Part shown: piece by piece, positions 24,001 through 33,000 of the stretch
Layout of the letters: each line of letters opens with the position of its first letter
How positions within the stretch are numbered: position 1 is the stretch's first letter
NCBI GenBank assembly: GCA_965197905.1
Contig: CBDAOB010000004.1
Location: 736,001-800,000 of the forward strand
DNA: 64,000 bases
From: Candidatus Latescibacterota bacterium
GTDB lineage: Bacteria; Latescibacterota; UBA2968; UBA8231
Direction: 5' to 3'
Made by a program: the position numbers

Positions 24001-27000
24001 GCGGGTGAGTTCTACCGGCGTTGCGCATTCTTGATTTTTTCCAACAGCCTCTGAATCGACGCCATGTCGAAAGATTCCGCATGTTCCTGCATCGTCGTCG
24101 CCAGCTGGTTGGCACCCGGTCCTATCTCCCCTAGCTCGGCCAGCGCCTGCCGCAACTCGGTTATGTTGGCCACCGCGGCGGACTGGGTTAGACGAGTGAC
24201 TAATTCTGCAGGCAGCGAAACGCGACTTGGATCGATCGGCGCTTCCACCTTAAGCGCCGGTTCTGCCGCATCCCTATCGGAGTAAACGAATTCCACCCCC
24301 AGCAGATCTGCCAGACAACTGTAGATCTGTTCGACGCGTACCGGTTTGCCGACAAACTCGTCGAACCCCGACGACAGATAGTGCTGACGTTCGTGTTCCA
24401 ACGTCGAAGCGGAGACAGCCACCGCTTTGATCGCTGTCGTCGCTGGATCTGTCTTCAACCGTTCAACCGCCTCGTTGCCATCCATTTCCGGCATGCGAAT
24501 ATCCATGAAGACGATATCCACCGTCTCTTCACGCGCCGCCTCCACCGCTTCGCGACCGTTGACGGCTTGCACGACGTGAACGCCGATCGCTTCCAAGAAT
24601 TGCGCCAGGATGTCGCGATTCTCCTTGACGTCATCCGCCACAAGGGCGCGCACGGAGTGAGCCGGATCCAGTCCAACGATACGACTCCAGTCGCGCTCCA
24701 CTTTTGGTGGCAACACGCTCTGCGACCGGGATAATTTGATGCTGAACGAGAAGGTGGTTCCTTTTCCGACCGCGGACTCCAGCTCGAGGGTACCCCCCAT
24801 CAACTCCACCAATCGCTTCGACACCGCGAGTCCGAGCCCGGTGCCGCCGCGCTCGTACCCCGCGCTGCCCTGCTGAAAAGGCTGGAACAGCTCCTGTTGC
24901 TCATCGGCACCGATACCTTGCCCCGTGTCCGTCACCACGAACCGATAGTTGTCGGGACCCGCAGGGGTGACGTTCAAAGAAACGGAACCTTTCTGGGTAA
25001 ACTTCACCGCATTGCCCAGCATGTTTATGAGCACCTGCATGAGTTTGCTTTCGTCGCCTCGAACCGAGACGCGGCCCGGGCTCGGCAACTCGAGGCGCCA
25101 TTCGAGACCCGCTTCGCGACAGCGAAGATCAAACATTACCGCTAGGCTCTGGAGCAGCTGGTCCAGGTCGAAATCCGACTCCTGAATCACCATTCGGCCC
25201 GCTTCGATCTTCGAGATGTCCAGGACCTCATTGATCAGCTTGAGCAGATGATCGCCGCTGGTCTGGATCGTTCCCACCGCCTGCCTGTGTTTGTCGGTCA
25301 GATCCGGGCTGTTCTGCATGATCTGCGCGTAGCCGATGATCGCGTTCATTGGCGTGCGAATTTCGTGGCTGATATTAGCCAGGAATTGCGACTTGGCCTG
25401 GTTGGCCAACTCGGCCGCATCCTTGGCTTCGCGGAGTTCGGAAATCAATTGGTTCTGAGCTTCGGTGGCCTCCTGAAAATCGCTGTAGCGGGCGTAGGCC
25501 AAGTCTACGACTTCGGCGAAGTCTTGGACGCGCCCAATCTCGCCCCCGGTAAATGCGGTTCCCTGACCGCTCCATCCCCGTTGCAATACCAGCGCGCCAC
25601 GGCTGTAAGGCACGTTGACTCCCCAGATCCTGGCTTTGGTATTGAGGGTGTCATCGGGTTCTAGGGTCGCCCAGCTCGATTTTTCCTGCTCCGTCATCTC
25701 CCCATGCCAAGTCTGTGCGGAACGCCATTGTTCGATGTAGTTGTGACTGAATTCGGTTTTTGCTTCGTTTGAAAGAACCTGGAGTCCGGTCTCCTCGTCC
25801 TCGGGGCGAACAACCTGTATGGTACCAGTCGCTTCGTTCAGAACGCAGACGTAAAGCAGATCGAATCTAACCCCCATTTGACGCAATTCGTCTCCTACCT
25901 GGACGATCACCTTTTGAAGATCATCCGACCTCTTCATGGCGAGAATAGTACTGCGGACCCGCTCGAGGGCTTGCTCCGCGGAGAAGCTGCGCAACAGATC
26001 TGCCATGTCGGTGTCGTCTTTGTCGACGCTCTCGAGGATGTTACGCGTGACCGGCGTGCTGCTTATGTTGAGAATGTCGGCTACAACCTTCGGGCCACCC
26101 ACGTCCTGGTCGCCAACCAGGATATCCCTCAACGACTGTTCCAGGGCTTCTTCTATCTGGTTGATGGCGTTGGGGGTGACGCTATCCATGGTCGCCATTC
26201 GATAGGCGACATCTGCCTGCAGAGGCTCGGGAAATTGGGCCAGAAGGCCGGCAGCCTGGTCCGCACCTAGCTGCGAGGCAATTAGCGCTATGGTCTGCGG
26301 GTGCTCATTGGCCAGAAACGGCGCCAGTTGATCTGGTTCCACGTTCTTGAGCATGTAGAATCCAGCCGTCACCCTGCTGGAGACGCGGGCTAGGATCTCT
26401 TTGGCTCGGGGCGCTCCAACGGCACGGGTAACTGCGGCGCGGGCAAAGTCCATTCCTCCGGTGCTCAACCACGTTCCTGCAAGCAGATGCTGCCTGAACT
26501 CTTCCAGCACGTCGTCGCGAAGCGCTTTCGGAGTGCCCTGCAAACGGGCAATCGCCTGGGTGGTCTCCTCTATCTCGAAATCGGAGAGATGTTGCATTAT
26601 CATGCCGGACACCTCTTGGCCGACAGCGACCATCACGATGGCCGCTTTTTGAATCGCCTCTAGCCCGCTCTCTTCGGTGGATTCATCGTCAACAAGCATC
26701 GTGCTCACCAGGTTGGCCGCCTCAGCCGGACGGTTACGCATGAATTCGTAGACAGAGGTAGATTCGTCAACGTGAAACGGAGCTGAGTCCTCTGTGCGAG
26801 TCGTACCTGTTTCGAGCCGTCCCTGCTCCGTGACGGAGGGCGCGATCTCCTGCTCGGGTTGATCGTCTCGTACTGGAGAAGCTTCAGCCGCGCCTGGCGC
26901 CCTTTCCTCCTGAAGGAGGGAGAAGGCCTGTTCCCAATTCGTCGAGGACGGGTACGCTGGCACGGGTGCCATCGAACCTACCTCGCTGTGGGAGGGGGGT

Positions 27001-30000: not shown

Positions 30001-33000
30001 GTCCACGCCACCGGCCTGGAAGCCGGCGATGACGGCCTCTTTCTCGTCCCGGCCGGTGAGGAATATGACCGGGATAGCTGCGGTCTCCGGTTCAGCTTTC
30101 AGGCGTCTGCAAACCTCGAAGCCATCCATTTCGGGCATGACGACATCGAGCAGAACAAGGTCCGGATTGGCCTGCTTGGCGATCTTTAGAGCCGCAGCTC
30201 CCTCGGTCGCGACCATTACCTTGTGTCCTCTTGCTTCGAGGACCTGCAGAAGCAGTTTGAGATTTGTCGGGTTGTCATCGACGGTCAGGACTCGAAAAGT
30301 TGTGTTGACTTGATCTGCGGTCATTGCCAGTTGGCTTCCACATGATGGATGGCAAAGGACATGCCAAACCTGAACGAGCCACTGCTAGAGTGGTATAACT
30401 TATTGTAAATTATCGTTTAAACTTGATTTCATAGCGATGGGATCAACGGGCAAGGTGCGTACCGAAATCGGTACGTACGCCACGCATTCGGAGCACCGCT
30501 ACGCTAGGAAATCGGTACGAGGAACCAGGCGAACCCTGTTTGGAACGCACACAGTGTACGGAAGACTCGGGCAGATTCCTACTTCGCATTTCTGCTAGGT
30601 TTTCGGTACAGAGTCTGATTCAGGTCGGCAGCGAATTGAAGCGTGGACACCCTCAACAAGGATGACAGGTTTTGACAGAGACTACTGAGGTTTGGAAGAG
30701 ACACCCCCGGGAGCGGGCGCCTTCAGGTCTAGCCAATCATCTATACAATGGATTGGTATGATCGAAACGGCAACCGGCATTCCACACCGAGCACTGGTTT
30801 CCGTGCGCCAGAATACCCCCCGGTCCTGGTGTAGCAGGTTCCAGGTCATGAACGTGGGATTGCGATTGTGAAATCGTTTCAGCCGCCGGAACGTGGGTCG
30901 AGGTAGGAAGACCCCGGTCCCGGCCAACCCCTTCTCACGTTGGAACAGGCGGGCTGGCAGACTCCCAGCTAGTGATGAAATCCTCGACGCTGAAATTCTC
31001 CGGCATCTCGTAGAAGTAATATTTCATCGCCTGGTTTTGAAACAGCGACTCATACTGCTCGGTGTCCGCCGTTAGTTCCTCCTCCAGCGCTCCGAACCGA
31101 TCCCAGAGCTGGTCCAGTTCCGCGGCGGTAAGGCGCGCACCGAGGTCCTTGACGGCCTTGGTGACTTGCCAGTCGTCGGAATCCGAATCCTTGTACTTGC
31201 GGACCATGGCGGCGATTTTCGACAGCACGATCAGTGAGGTCATGCGCGCGTGCTCACTTGGATGCAACGTCTCGAACGCCTTTACAAACGCTCCCCGGTC
31301 TCGCTCTATCATGGCGCTGAACGTCGCCGCGATCTCGTCCAGGTGTTGCGCATGCAGCTGATCGAACTGTTTGCACTTGGCCGCACACTCGGAAGAAAGG
31401 TGCCCTACGAAATCGACGCCGATGGGATCGGGAATCGTGTGACCGAACCCCTTGTTGCCGACCGCATGATATCCCCCGTGAAACGTGCGCCGTTTGATCT
31501 CACCGTTCGGGGCAGCGCTGTGCAGAAAACAGTTGATGTAGATCACCCCATCGCCGGCCTTGAGATCGACCGGCATGGCGCCTGGCAGCGGCACGACCCC
31601 CATGCGGCGCTCGATTTTTCTTTCCTCGGCGTTGTTTCGCCTTTGATGGCTCCCTGGAATGATATGAAGAAAGCTGTCGTCGTAGAGCGCGATGTGCCAT
31701 TGCAGATAAGGGGGACCGTTCAGTCGAATGTCCTCCTGCAGGCCATCGAGTGGCGCCATATCGATGGGATGAATGTCCCGGTGCCATCCCGTGCCCGAAG
31801 CGATCAGCACCCACATTCCTGAGGGAATCACCTCCGGGACATTCATCAATTCACGGCTGAATCCGAGGGTGCGCTCGTCGAAAAGGAATTCAACCGCGTC
31901 CGCGGTCTCCGGTTCAACCCACTCGGTGGTGATCACTCGACTCTCTACCCCGGCATCGGTTGCCCGCTGAACGATGCGATCGACACTGTTGCGCAACCGT
32001 TGCAGTTCCTCTGGCGGAATCATGTCGCGAACAATGACATACCCCAGCTCCATGAGCTGCTCTCGCTGCGCTTCGATGGTTGCTGTCATGGTTTCTCCCT
32101 TCAGACTGTTATATCCGCAAGAATCTCCAAGGTCTCCTCTACGGAGACCTCGTCTGGCTCGCCGGCGTGCTCAAGATACTTTCGCGTCTTTCCGTTGAGA
32201 ACACCATAGAATCCGCGAACCTCCTCATCCGGATGATCCCTCCAGAGCTCCGTTGGTATGTAGGACACTTCGCTCAGGTGGTCGCGACGGCGATGACCGT
32301 AATAGATCTGCACTGATTTTCGTTCGTGCGGGGTCGGCCTCACGGTGACCGTGTGTAAGCTGGAGGCGTCGAAGAGAATCGCAGTGCCGGCGCAACCGTA
32401 GACATCGTGAATGCCGCCGCGGGCCAGCTGTGCTTCCGCGTCCAGCAGTTCCTCATCCGCCGCTTCGGGCGAGATGGCGAAGCTATGGGTCTCTTCGTTA
32501 ACGTCGGTCAGGTAGACCATCAGCTGGACATAGCCCAGACGCAGCGGGTGTTCCGGCCAAATGAAACGCCCGCCGCCGTCGCGGTGCCAGCGATGCCCAA
32601 CCGATCCCTCCCATGAGGTTATTCCTTTGATCGGTTCGCCGTCGTAGGCCGCCATGTGCCGCAGACTGATCTCCGAGAAACAGACCTCGCCGTCGAACAG
32701 CAGCTGGAGGTGCTTCAGGACCGTCGGGTGGCGAATGATCTCGTCGAATTCGGGCGCTGTCAGCAGTTGGTGGCAATGGGAGCTTTGCCAGATAACGTTA
32801 CTCCTCCAGAAGCGGTCGTACTGGCTGCGATTCCGATCGAAGAGCTCGGCAAAACGGGTCACCTCGTCATCGTTCAAGAGCTTGCCAAGCGTCAGGTAGC
32901 CGTTCTCTTTGAAAAAATCGTACTCTTCCTTGCCGATCGCGAGCTCCTTATACCTGCTCCTCGACGCCGGACGCGGTCGACCGGTAAGCCGCATCCAGAA

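Follow-up and report, generated by a model that had tools for sequence, protein, structure and literature searches.

A flagellar switch complex as the proposed sensor of a sigma54 gene-control circuit in a Candidatus Latescibacterota bacterium

The window, that is the whole stretch of 64,000 nt that was analysed, carries on its minus strand, at 24012-30324, five open reading frames which by Pfam encode a sigma54 activator, FliM, FliN, FliN and a FliG::hybrid kinase. The initial annotation had described here a FliG(N+M)-HisKA-HATPase-receiver fusion ending a five-gene operon, and both the reading frames and the Pfam domains agree with it. Coordinates are positions within the window, residue numbers refer to the 1030-aa GTG frame of the FliG::kinase, and G000 denotes the host genome. 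The features of the locus are as follows.

23892..30926, no strand: 7.0-kb stretch with operon and promoter, absent at the syntenic site of same-genus G006
30459..30518, no strand: candidate activator binding site, palindrome GTACCGA-AA-TCGGTAC (30459-30474) and half-site GTACCGATTTC (30508-30518)
30351..30366, minus: sigma54-type promoter TGGCAT-N5-TTGCC, 27 nt upstream of the activator ATG
28819..30324, minus: NtrC-type sigma54 activator, REC-AAA+-HTH_8, 501 aa (Pfam Response_reg 3e-30, Sigma54_activat 3.5e-67, AAA_lid_14, HTH_8)
27782..28822, minus: FliM paralogue, 346 aa (Pfam FliM 3e-47 and FliMN_C), GGXG present, CheY-binding N-terminal peptide absent
27458..27760, minus: FliN paralogue 1, 100 aa (Pfam FliMN_C 7.6e-19)
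27105..27461, minus: FliN paralogue 2, 118 aa (Pfam FliMN_C 1.5e-17)
24012..27104, minus: FliG::hybrid histidine kinase, 1030 aa from GTG (Pfam, alignment, structure model)

FliM (with GGXG) and the two FliN share one operon with the FliG::kinase, pointing to co-transcription, and the FliM start and the activator stop overlap by 4 nt. The true start of the FliG::kinase is probably the ATG at 27083 (M8), to which the orthologues align, giving 1023 aa. No membrane segment was found in any of the five operon proteins, with a maximum KD19 of at most 1.5 versus 2.55 in FliF. The activator translation shows GAFTGA, the Walker A GESGTGKE and the receiver Asp context LLDVVMPEMDG, and the catalytic motifs of kinase, receiver and activator are all present (Pfam, translations, alignment). 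Orthologues of FliN paralogue 2 in G013 and G002 are fusions with an FGE-sulfatase domain (L041:10713-11792, L043:7155-8531).

The FliG::kinase runs from an N-terminal motif, with a variable disordered linker directly after it, through FliF- and FliG-derived segments to a hybrid kinase and a His-less four-helix end:

26940..27056, minus: conserved motif RILG..W.PPS.AEV..MPP.P.YPS, residues ~17-55 (alignment; pLDDT <50)
26682..26789, minus: FliF C-terminal tail homologue, residues ~106-141, directly before FliG_N (HMM)
26373..26663, minus: FliG_N, 148-244 (Pfam 6e-29; PDB sequence matches 5wuj_B, 5tdy_B)
26124..26336, minus: FliG_M, 257-327 (Pfam 1.4e-29), EHPQ at 26295-26306
25983..26099, minus: Gly-Gly linker and ARM-C segment, 336-374 (BLASTP, PDB matches; names after an excerpt of PMC7355467)
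25461..25955, minus: GAF domain, 384-548 (AF2 model pLDDT 90.2, PDB structure search)
24318..25397, minus: HisKA 570-636 (H580), HATPase_c 683-792, receiver 821-929 with Asp in FMDIRMP (Pfam, alignment)
24015..24233, minus: C-terminal four-helix segment, model helices 966-978, 981-991, 996-1010 and 1014-1029

In a six-frame search of the genome, the HMM of the N-terminal motif matched only the FliG::kinase (E 2.4e-19) and the module B FliG (E 1.1e-4). EHPQ, reported before at residue 260 of the 1023-aa protein, is indeed at 260-263 counted from M8, that is E267 H268 P269 Q270 in the GTG frame. FliG homology stops at S373-F374, the MFXF position of full FliG. BLASTP against a solitary FliG aligned residues 144-374 (61% identity) and ended at FliG position 244 of 345, while the match to Salmonella FliG (8umd_B) runs to residue 228 of 331; 'RNQMFTF' of the module B FliG lies opposite 'LRS--FS' of the fusion, and no Pfam match to FliG_C was obtained in the FliG::kinase. 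MFXF is the hinge of FliG, and GGXG of FliM pairs with EHPQ of FliG, according to an excerpt of a review (PMC7355467). Judged by these alignments, the fusion breaks exactly at the MFXF hinge, and the replacement is confined to the final FliG sub-domain, C-alpha1-6, which holds the torque helix. The earlier statement that the FliG C-terminal domain had been exchanged holds for this torque sub-domain and fails for the Gly-Gly linker and ARM-C, which are retained.

Residues 384-548 gave no Pfam match; the best structural counterparts include 3k2n_B (Z 12.4, rmsd 2.8 over 141 aa) and 1mc0_A (Z 12.3), and most of the best 50 matches are GAF-type domains judged by entry titles. The kinase core was matched by Foldseek to ShkA 6qrj (E 3e-18, best), GacS 7z8n, RetS and HK853. 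A separate regulator is normally reached from a hybrid kinase via an HPt. None was recognised by Pfam or alignment in the FliG::kinase or the operon, and the C-terminal segment, with no Pfam match and no invariant His in its alignment columns, is modelled as HPt-like in shape only. Since the GAF-kinase-REC cassette (residue ~374-380 onward) also sits after other input modules in many kinases of the family, and the activator's nearest paralogue in the genome (60% identity) adjoins a Reg_prop/Y_Y_Y hybrid kinase gene, FliG occupies the slot of an input domain.

A search with residues 140-420 returned 26 matches, 16 of them FliG+kinase fusions: 13 (the host's own included) have all five domains, 2 lack REC and 1 is partial. 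EHPQ and the H-box (S579 H580 E581), claimed before as invariant, are so across the 16 aligned proteins, and so is the junction. In the FliG tree 18 fusion rows cluster together next to canonical FliG (support for their group 90/98; 88% of bootstraps). The order regulator-FliM-FliN-FliN-FliG::HK is repeated in G013 and G002, and in G058 the fusion is present on a cut contig. It was right to say that the operon is kept in other genera, but this was overstated: the full-length fusion occurs in 4 of the 76 genomes of the family and 4 of the 168 of the phylum, and the cassette is rare and accessory. At the G006 site colinear flanks of 78-94% identity enclose 138 unrelated bases in place of the operon, a clean 7-kb indel. 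The separate FliG and kinase genes attributed to a same-genus genome were found in neither G005 nor G006, the two such genomes searched, and G006 is devoid of the whole operon.

Rarity, patchiness, absence from the sister genome, an in-frame TAA in the G002 fusion copy and a degenerate FliF tail in G000 would suit an assembly artefact or a functionless decaying relic. This origin is very improbable and already largely refuted, as the fusion is spanned without indels by contigs of two independent studies, which show 0 and 3 substitutions in it (2 synonymous, 1 V-to-I), sixteen fusions 38-58% identical to the host's protein share the invariant EHPQ, H-box and junction, and the intact protein P0014 is almost identical to the G002 copy in the FliG core.

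The top genome match of the tail HMM is FliF itself, in its last 37 residues (461-497 of 497, E 1.1e-16). FliF is identical at 31 of 45 positions (E 1e-15) to the tail of the orthologous fusion P0009 and at 10 of 20 (E 0.01) to that of its own genome's fusion; in sequence, the G000 tail is half degenerate. In the structure model the tail forms helices 118-124 and 126-138 with pLDDT 75-82. Complex prediction of tail and FliG_N gave an ipSAE of 0.45 (runs 0.43/0.45/0.49) versus 0.02 for the best control, with contact agreement of at least 88% and partner pLDDT of at least 62, and was graded 'weak support'. Of 157 solved complexes 116 attained that mark, as did 2 of 215 mismatched pairs, but at 0.60 or below it was only 18 of the 157 and both mismatches; as a similar complex is already solved, the pass may reflect memory. 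FliF_C and FliG_N co-fold, according to an excerpt of PMC8956890. The built-in tail argues for independence of the fusion from the MS ring. Of the nine FliG_M-bearing genes in the genome, three carry a FliF tail. One of the 16 fusions, P0024, is without FliG_N and tail and retains FliG_M, ARM-C, GAF and kinase, so that the constant part is FliM binding, not MS-ring docking.

Counterparts of the sigma54-type promoter stand at the equal position in two other genera, G013 (TGGTACAGGCATTGCA) and G002 (CGGCACGCCCTTTGCG); sigma54-like sites are common, with 1348 in the genome that match at least 9 of 11 positions. The palindrome and half-site are likely to be the activator's binding site. The perfect palindrome occurs once in G000 and once in G002, there at the equivalent place upstream of the orthologous activator gene, and G013 has degenerate half-sites only. 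Four exact half-sites lie upstream of the operon promoter versus at most one at any other sigma54-like site, and the operon seems to activate itself.

The genome's switch-protein repertoire comprises 9 FliG, 5 FliM (four had been tested before) and 14 FliMN_C matches. Conservation of the FliM GGXG was borne out in an alignment of seven FliM (F140 G141 G142 G144 invariant). The reported lack of the CheY-binding peptide in the operon FliM is true of the G000 and G013 copies, but the G002 orthologue keeps it and the trait is not constant; the three copies form no supported clade (39% of bootstraps). The FliG, FliM and FliN parts share 57-70% identity with canonical motor proteins (FliG part 61-70%) and 57-61% with the host's own motor-type proteins, so they could well mix with the real C-ring. 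It could be assumed that the alternative FliM, the FliN pair and the torque-less FliG exchange into the motor or titrate its subunits, yielding motors which ignore CheY or are braked, with kinase and activator merely timing production. The high identity, the wholesale diversification of switch proteins, the peptide-less FliM of G000 and G013 and the operon being its own sole recognisable target all fit such remodelling, but it is rather improbable: the G002 FliM retains the peptide, a FliG with its own tail should fail to dock on FliF, and the covalent FliG-kinase join at the hinge, with its junction invariant in 16 proteins, is left unexplained.

In the main rival reading, the FliG::kinase could co-polymerise with canonical FliG by ARM-M/ARM-C stacking and act as a motor-attached checkpoint or motor-state sensor, a hard-wired FlgSR/FlrBC/FleSR in which the operon FliM and FliN join the real C-ring and the kinase reports rotor assembly or load to a sigma54 activator. 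The 61-70% identity of the FliG part favours this, as does C. jejuni FlgS, which in an excerpt of PMC7064773 binds FliF/FliG, contacting them after their multimerisation. The host is of the same regulatory type, with FlhF/FlhG-like genes in the flagellar cluster and RpoN present; perfect sigma54 sites precede flgF-flgG-flgA-flgH, motB-fliL-fliM-fliN and a FliN-like gene (3 of 14 in the genome), and the cluster holds none of the 24 sigma54-activator family matches over cut-off (28 in all). Nevertheless, the flgF promoter is conserved in the module-less G005 and G006 and another activator must therefore serve it, the module is restricted to 4 of 76 family genomes, the palindrome stands at the operon's own promoter only, the built-in tail should fill the FliF-binding groove, and one orthologue has no FliG_N. 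This reading is considered possible but unlikely. The flagellar export gate is present in all module-bearing genomes, so the distribution gives no proof of flagella-independence.

Among known systems, FlgS/FlgR (Campylobacter, Helicobacter), FlrB/FlrC (Vibrio) and FleS/FleR (Pseudomonas) likewise pair a cytoplasmic histidine kinase with an NtrC-type sigma54 activator and link their signalling to FliG, in FlhF/FlhG and sigma54 flagellates such as this host. The present module, in contrast, has FliG inside the kinase polypeptide, brings along a FliF tail, a FliM and a FliN pair, uses a hybrid kinase bearing GAF and REC, is an accessory found in 4 of 168 genomes, and has the promoter of its own operon, in place of rod or hook promoters, as recognisable target. 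With the canonical C-ring the module shares FliG_N, FliG_M with EHPQ, the Gly-Gly linker, ARM-C, a FliM with GGXG and FliN-like C-terminus, and FliN; it differs in the missing C-alpha1-6 torque sub-domain, the FliF tail in cis, the host's peptide-less operon FliM and a location away from the flagellar cluster, beside kinase and activator. FliF-FliG fusion proteins exist, natural and engineered, and were among the database matches (P0027, P0028; the PDB 8z4d chain titled 'M-ring protein, FliG'). As in these, the tail directly precedes FliG_N in one chain, but only the last ~35-45 FliF residues are present, with no membrane or ring-building part, so the FliG::kinase cannot be an MS ring. The DHp-CA-REC core and GAF fold resemble GAF-input hybrid kinases of the ShkA, GacS and RetS class, from which the 375-residue FliF-tail/FliG module N-terminal to GAF and the unrecognised HPt set it apart. 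Spirochaetes have more than one FliG per genome (FliG1/FliG2), full-length and without kinase domains, and the extra copies are not all rotor. This genome also has multiple FliG, but with nine FliG_M-bearing genes, three FliF tails and a kinase fusion.

The preferred explanation, to which we give about an even chance, is that the locus encodes an input module which derives from a switch complex, works independently of the MS ring and gates a kinase within an autoregulated circuit. It would be a cytoplasmic sensor kinase system in an accessory, self-activating sigma54 operon, with a switch complex detached from the motor as its input. The FliF tail would complete the co-folded FliG_N/FliF_C domain in cis, making the MS ring dispensable; the operon FliM would bind FliG_M via GGXG-EHPQ and both FliN would attach to FliM, so that a soluble oligomer resembling a switch forms, two units of which the kinase dimer could join with no need for a complete ring. 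Assembly or conformation of the switch unit, whose usual output is a turn of the torque helix at the MFXF hinge, would be relayed via GAF and signalling helix to the kinase, which would phosphorylate the NtrC-type activator of the operon and its own receiver. The activator would then bind the conserved palindrome and fire the operon's own promoter in positive feedback. Candidate inputs are a CheY-like receiver, since the G002 FliM retains the CheY-binding peptide, a GAF ligand, or a binder of the FGE-sulfatase domain on the G013/G002 FliN. Points against the preferred explanation are the lack of a recognised HPt, the half-degenerate G000 tail, the high identity of the FliG, FliM and FliN parts to motor proteins, the unsupported clade of the operon FliM copies, the abundance of sigma54-like sites, the degenerate half-sites of G013 and the export gate in every module-bearing genome. 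On this view parts of the flagellar switch seem to act as the sensor for gene control, a C-ring-like assembly that would have been turned into a scaffold for two-component signalling.

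Five tightly packed minus-strand ORFs fill the window from 24012 to 30324.

Genes of the operon, in order of transcription, with their Pfam matches
Gene 1, minus strand: sigma54 activator; REC, Sigma54_activat (3.5e-67), AAA lid, HTH_8
Gene 2, minus strand: FliM; FliM (3.1e-47) and FliMN_C, the FliN-like C-terminus (3.6e-8)
Genes 3 and 4, minus strand: two FliN; FliMN_C (8e-19 and 1.5e-17)
Last gene, 24012-27104, minus strand: FliG-histidine kinase fusion; FliG_N (6.4e-29), FliG_M (1.4e-29), HisKA (2.9e-23), HATPase_c (4.1e-29), Response_reg (2.3e-21)

The genes abut or overlap, the stop codon of the activator being overlapped by the ATG of FliM and that of FliN being directly followed by the GTG of the fusion. 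From this GTG the protein has 1030 residues; the 1023 residues of the initial annotation are the likelier length because orthologues align from the ATG at M8. That FliG and a hybrid kinase share one chain, in company with FliM, two FliN and a sigma54 activator, was likewise borne out by Pfam and by contigs of two studies. A 5974-nt contig of one study matches 23847-29733 with zero differences, and a 4903-nt contig of a second, independent study, which covers 24074-28976, differs by three substitutions and is free of indels; since both cover the fusion, it is not an assembly artefact. No RNA sample is listed among those that contain it. The second sample shows four substitutions in all: two are synonymous, and the others are V360I and, in the activator, E450K. 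In the relative G002, which belongs to another genus, the fusion gene (L043:8543-11719) is interrupted within the HATPase region by an in-frame TAA, which leaves 752 + 269 aa, and the database homologue P0014 (1036 aa), almost identical to it in the FliG core, is intact. The reading of the fusion as an artefact or a relic is given hardly any credence. Downstream of the operon a minus-strand ORF (23403-23912, 169 aa) is poly-Ser, has zero Pfam matches and overlaps a plus-strand ORF (23439-23801, 120 aa) that is convergent with the operon and has a signal-peptide/lipobox-like start and an acidic tail; judged by eye, the plus-strand ORF is the real gene and the other spurious. Small ORFs downstream of the operon in the other-genus relative G013 were unconvincing as genes.

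Residues 144-374 of the fusion are 61% identical to one of the genome's solitary full-length FliG proteins (locus L001, where the gene stands beside two flagellin genes), and the BLASTP alignment stops at position 244 of the 345 of that FliG. The match to Salmonella FliG (8umd_B) runs to residue 228 of 331, 'LRS--FS' of the fusion stands opposite 'RNQMFTF' of the other FliG of the window, and FliG_N also matches PDB 5wuj_B and 5tdy_B by sequence. Because the matches to these three FliG proteins, that of L001, the other one of the window and that of Salmonella, end where they do, the fusion retains FliG_N, FliG_M and its EHPQ, and further the Gly-Gly linker together with ARM-C, and breaks at the MFXF hinge. 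The EHPQ loop of FliG_M, described from the start as kept, is invariant in 16 fusion sequences, as is S373-F374 at the junction. No FliG_C Pfam match was obtained in the fusion; the C-alpha1-6 sub-domain with the charged torque helix is absent and a GAF domain follows instead. The initial annotation had the whole C-terminal domain of FliG replaced, which holds for the torque-bearing C-alpha1-6 but not for ARM-C, so that C-alpha1-6 is the only replaced part. According to a review, GGXG of FliM contacts EHPQR of FliG, FliG_M stacks on the ARM-C of its neighbour, and the MFXF hinge amplifies motions of FliG_M into reorientation of the torque sub-domain (PMC7355467).

The Pfam-blank stretch behind the FliG part (nothing was matched in residues 380-570, 930-1030 or 1-147) folds as a GAF domain in the predicted model, with a pLDDT of 90. 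Its best fold match, over 141 residues, is 3k2n_B (Z 12.4, rmsd 2.8); by their titles GAF-type domains also make up most of the 50 top fold-search entries, and the Atlas search gave leads to GAF only, at 0.89, so at the level of the predicted model its GAF identity is settled by fold search. The whole 1030-residue model retrieved kinases only in Foldseek. Behind the GAF domain come a long signalling helix, the DHp, the ATP-binding domain, the receiver and four C-terminal helices. H580 of the H-box is invariant in the alignment and the fold matches solved kinases, while in the receiver DD, FMDIRMP with its Asp, SAS and GKP are readable. As regards an HPt that would relay to the final regulator, neither a conserved His, in the alignment, nor a Pfam match was found in the C-terminal four-helix segment. 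The GAF-kinase-REC cassette, from residue ~375 on, recurs behind other input modules in many kinases of the family, and the nearest paralogue of the activator (60% identical) pairs with a periplasmic-propeller hybrid kinase; since this is so, the FliG part occupies the place of an input domain.

Most of the ~140-residue stretch that precedes FliG_N is disordered in the predicted model, but two pieces within it are conserved. One, immediately in front of FliG_N, resembles the C-terminus of FliF: the orthologue P0009 agrees with the end of this genome's FliF, its last 45 residues, at 31 of 45 positions (E 1e-15), and the fusion of the window itself reaches 10 identities in 20 (E 0.01). The segment was taken from 15 fusions to make an HMM, which in the six-frame translation of the whole genome has its best match in the FliF C-terminus, at residues 461-497 of 497 (E 1.1e-16), with the fusion itself second and the other FliG of the window third (3.5e-4); a further FliG, on contig C1, scores 0.35, which is not significant. 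A YscJ_FliF Pfam match was not found in the fusion, and the C-terminal tail alone is present, without the ring-building domains and membrane segments of FliF. In the monomer model the tail helices have a pLDDT of 75-82 and their flanks one near 30. A complex prediction of the tail (100-141) with FliG_N (142-256) gave an ipSAE of 0.45 against 0.02 for the best control, with the verdict 'weak support', and it shows likeness at most, because a like complex is already solved. FliF_C and FliG_N are described as co-folding and mutually required in a paper that cites Lynch 2017 for it (PMC8956890). The orthologue P0024, on a 3.09-Mb contig, is without tail and FliG_N and keeps FliG_M, ARM-C, GAF and kinase. 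We infer that the fusion does not dock on the MS ring and that its constant business end is the FliM-binding part. None of the five operon proteins has a hydrophobic segment (maximal KD19 at most 1.5 vs 2.55 in FliF). The motif at the extreme N-terminus has HMM matches confined, in the whole genome, to the fusion and the other FliG of the window; a FliH-like origin was rejected, as FliH has no match at E<=10 and the N-terminus of the FliH of this genome looks different.

The operon's FliM (P0002) shares 57% identity with its flagellar counterpart and retains the GGXG that all seven compared FliM have. The CheY-binding peptide (LSQxEIDALL), reported as missing, is indeed absent from P0002 and from the G013 orthologue but retained in the G002 orthologue as MADILTQDEIEALL; it is present in the flagellar FliM and in the other FliM of the window. 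A dedicated FliM lineage of the operon was not adopted, as the tree of seven FliM is unresolved and gives no supported clade for its copies. In G013 (L041:10713-11792) and G002 (L043:7155-8531) the second FliN shares its chain with an FGE-sulfatase (formylglycine-generating-enzyme-like) domain; that of the window is short and without it. A REC-PP2C (SpoIIE) gene directly follows the fusion in G002 (L043:11737-12981) and in the third other-genus relative, G058 (L044:935-2179), is not there in the window, and may be a second output. The activator is of the NtrC family, with REC, an AAA+ domain with GAFTGA read in the translation, and HTH_8, and RpoN is encoded in the genome.

A sigma54-type element, TGGCAT-N5-TTGCC, lies 27 nt before the ATG of the activator, and such elements occur at the equivalent place in G013 and G002. 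Because matches at that stringency are common (1348 in the genome), the case for the promoter rests on its position and on what lies upstream, namely a perfect palindrome, GTACCGA-N2-TCGGTAC (30459-30474), and an extra half-site. The palindrome is unique in the genome; in G002 it is also unique and again precedes the activator gene, and in G013 it is degenerate. Four exact half-sites stand upstream of the operon promoter vs at most one at any other sigma54-like site. A second perfect palindrome was not found in G000 (the genome of the window), G002, G013, G058 or G006, and counts of one-mismatch palindromes were not above the reversed control. We read the operon as autoregulated by its activator at this predicted site. 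In the scan for half-sites with sigma54 elements the operon's own promoter alone stands out and other targets were not found; two weaker candidates, C1:22546, before a PAS-kinase/receiver cluster, and C4:546352, before a sigma70-family gene, gave no convincing link as targets. The latter gene, for a sigma factor of 288 aa (G000:C4:546352, minus strand, L055:6261-7127), is preceded at ~225 bp by a perfect sigma54 site, TGGCACACAATTTGCA.

The genome has nine FliG_M-bearing genes, five FliM, 14 FliMN_C matches, one FlhA and one full FliF, which belongs to the flagellar cluster; a further YscJ_FliF match, a partial one, falls in a 201-aa frame at C3:312555 (E 7.6e-14). The cluster reads fliE-fliF-fliH-fliI-fliJ-fliK-flgD-flgE ... 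motB-fliL-fliM-fliN-fliOP-fliR-flhB-flhA-flhF-flhG-fliA and has no fliG between fliF and fliH, where the gap is 72 bp (L010:7342-9675, G000:C5:~2493300-2495700). FlhA is split over two frames (G000:C5:2476664-2478614; profile 1-185 and 186-656), by either a frameshift or a sequencing error, and is a single frame of ~705-725 aa in five relatives. Six solitary full-length fliG (L001-L006; 343-377 aa, 73-81% mutual identity) are scattered over four contigs, one of them beside groES/groEL. Three modules pair a tail-bearing FliG with FliM and two FliN: module A, which is the operon, and two others.

Further modules with a tail-bearing FliG
Module B, ~16450-19532, minus strand: FliN, FliN, 437-aa FliG, 413-aa FliM
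Module C, contig C1 (L007:9222-11465 plus G000:C1:142207-142686): two FliN, 327-aa FliG, FliM

In module B the FliG combines the N-terminal motif with the FliF-like tail and a full torque domain; the FliM has the CheY-binding peptide and a long insertion. This FliF-tailed yet otherwise complete switch set is without obvious role; upstream of it (7247-15483, plus strand) lies a signalling cluster that encodes a histidine kinase, a REC-GAF protein, a protein of 851 aa with a FapA domain, a hybrid kinase and a Pfam-less protein of 448 aa. The FliG of module C has a FliF-like tail, shows ELPQ instead of EHPQ and ends after ARM-C, and the module adjoins a serine recombinase gene. In the FliG tree 18 kinase-fusion rows form one group (90/98) beside canonical FliGs, and those of modules B and C pair (99/99). 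At L008:9398-10381 and 14761-16434 lie the fifth FliM and, 4 kb from it, a gene for a group II intron reverse transcriptase. This FliM is divergent and solitary, 35% identical to the operon's FliM, with the N-terminus MAEGLSEEELHELL; it is divergently transcribed from fliS, 237 bp apart. Single-chain FliM-FliN-FliG proteins of 801-942 aa (P0016-P0019, P0021; one named Gemmatimonadetes by its source) have FliG parts 61-68% identical to the solitary FliG of this genome; in P0016 the order FliM, FliMN_C, FliG_N/M/C was confirmed.

A full-length match to the fusion occurs in 4/76 genomes of the family (G000, G002, G058 and G013, from four genera) and in 4/168 phylum-wide; one database homologue is named 'Candidatus Latescibacteria' by its source. 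The statement that the operon is kept in other genera of the family thus stands as to the genera, but the fusion is rare. In the complete same-genus genome G006 both flanks are colinear at 78-94% identity, 138 unrelated bases replace 23892-30926 of the window, no mobile-element signs were seen at the borders of this indel, and module B is conserved at ~90% nucleotide identity. Separate FliG and kinase genes, which had been ascribed to a same-genus relative, were not found in G006 or in G005, also of the same genus; the piece of FliG at G006:C1:~105700-106500 comes from a broken gene of the solitary type and has no operon neighbours. FlhA and several FliG are present in all five genomes checked.

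The closest known concept is FlgSR/FlrBC/FleSR, likewise a cytoplasmic kinase with an NtrC-type sigma54 activator. Systems of that kind switch on rod/hook genes, and they are active only in the presence of MS ring, FliG rotor and export gate (PMC7064773). A motor-attached sensor or FlgSR-like checkpoint would fit the use of sigma54 for flagellar genes in G000, where three of 14 perfect sites precede flgFGAH, motB-fliL-fliM-fliN and a FliN-like gene, and the flagellar cluster has no activator gene. It is nevertheless judged rather unlikely: G005 and G006 lack the module yet conserve the flgF promoter, the module's rarity also speaks against it, the palindrome marks the operon's own promoter only, and the FliF tail argues against docking on FliF. 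Remodelling of the motor, or a decoy, is considered improbable. An MS-ring-independent switch complex serving as input of the kinase is preferred, at about even chances, and more tentatively it is proposed that such a freed, FliF-tailed complex is a cytoplasmic allosteric receptor that flips or assembles as in the motor, with the kinase, not the torque helix, as its output at MFXF. The FliF tail built into FliG would make the MS ring unnecessary, the FliM/FliN/FliG unit would still flip or assemble, and, since at the hinge a histidine kinase would stand in place of the torque helix, a 'CW/CCW'-type conformational decision would emerge as phosphorylation and as sigma54 transcription. In that case the kinase-fused, the truncated and the full-length FliG module of G000, all three tail-bearing, would be a family of MS-ring-independent switch complexes.

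To our knowledge C-ring proteins are known only from flagella and, distantly, injectisomes. In the literature searched, mostly outside subscription journals, no description was found of a FliG-kinase fusion, of a non-flagellar FliG/FliM/FliN module or of a FliG with a built-in FliF tail but without the rest of FliF. Each part belongs to a known family; what is new is how the parts are combined and that FliG breaks off at the MFXF hinge. If the motor-attached sensor were true, the fusion would be the first kinase physically built into the rotor, which bears directly on a question still open, namely how the assembly of the rotor is sensed by FlgS-type kinases. If the preferred reading of an MS-ring-independent complex is true, a tailed, kinase-ended FliG would mean that the allosteric machinery of the switch is reusable as a signalling input, and it would provide both a natural construct for FliM-to-FliG conformational coupling, read as phosphorylation instead of rotation, and a soluble, MS-ring-independent FliF_C/FliG_N unit. 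The finding also draws attention to a radiation of switch-protein paralogues, so far unexplored, within an uncultured lineage.
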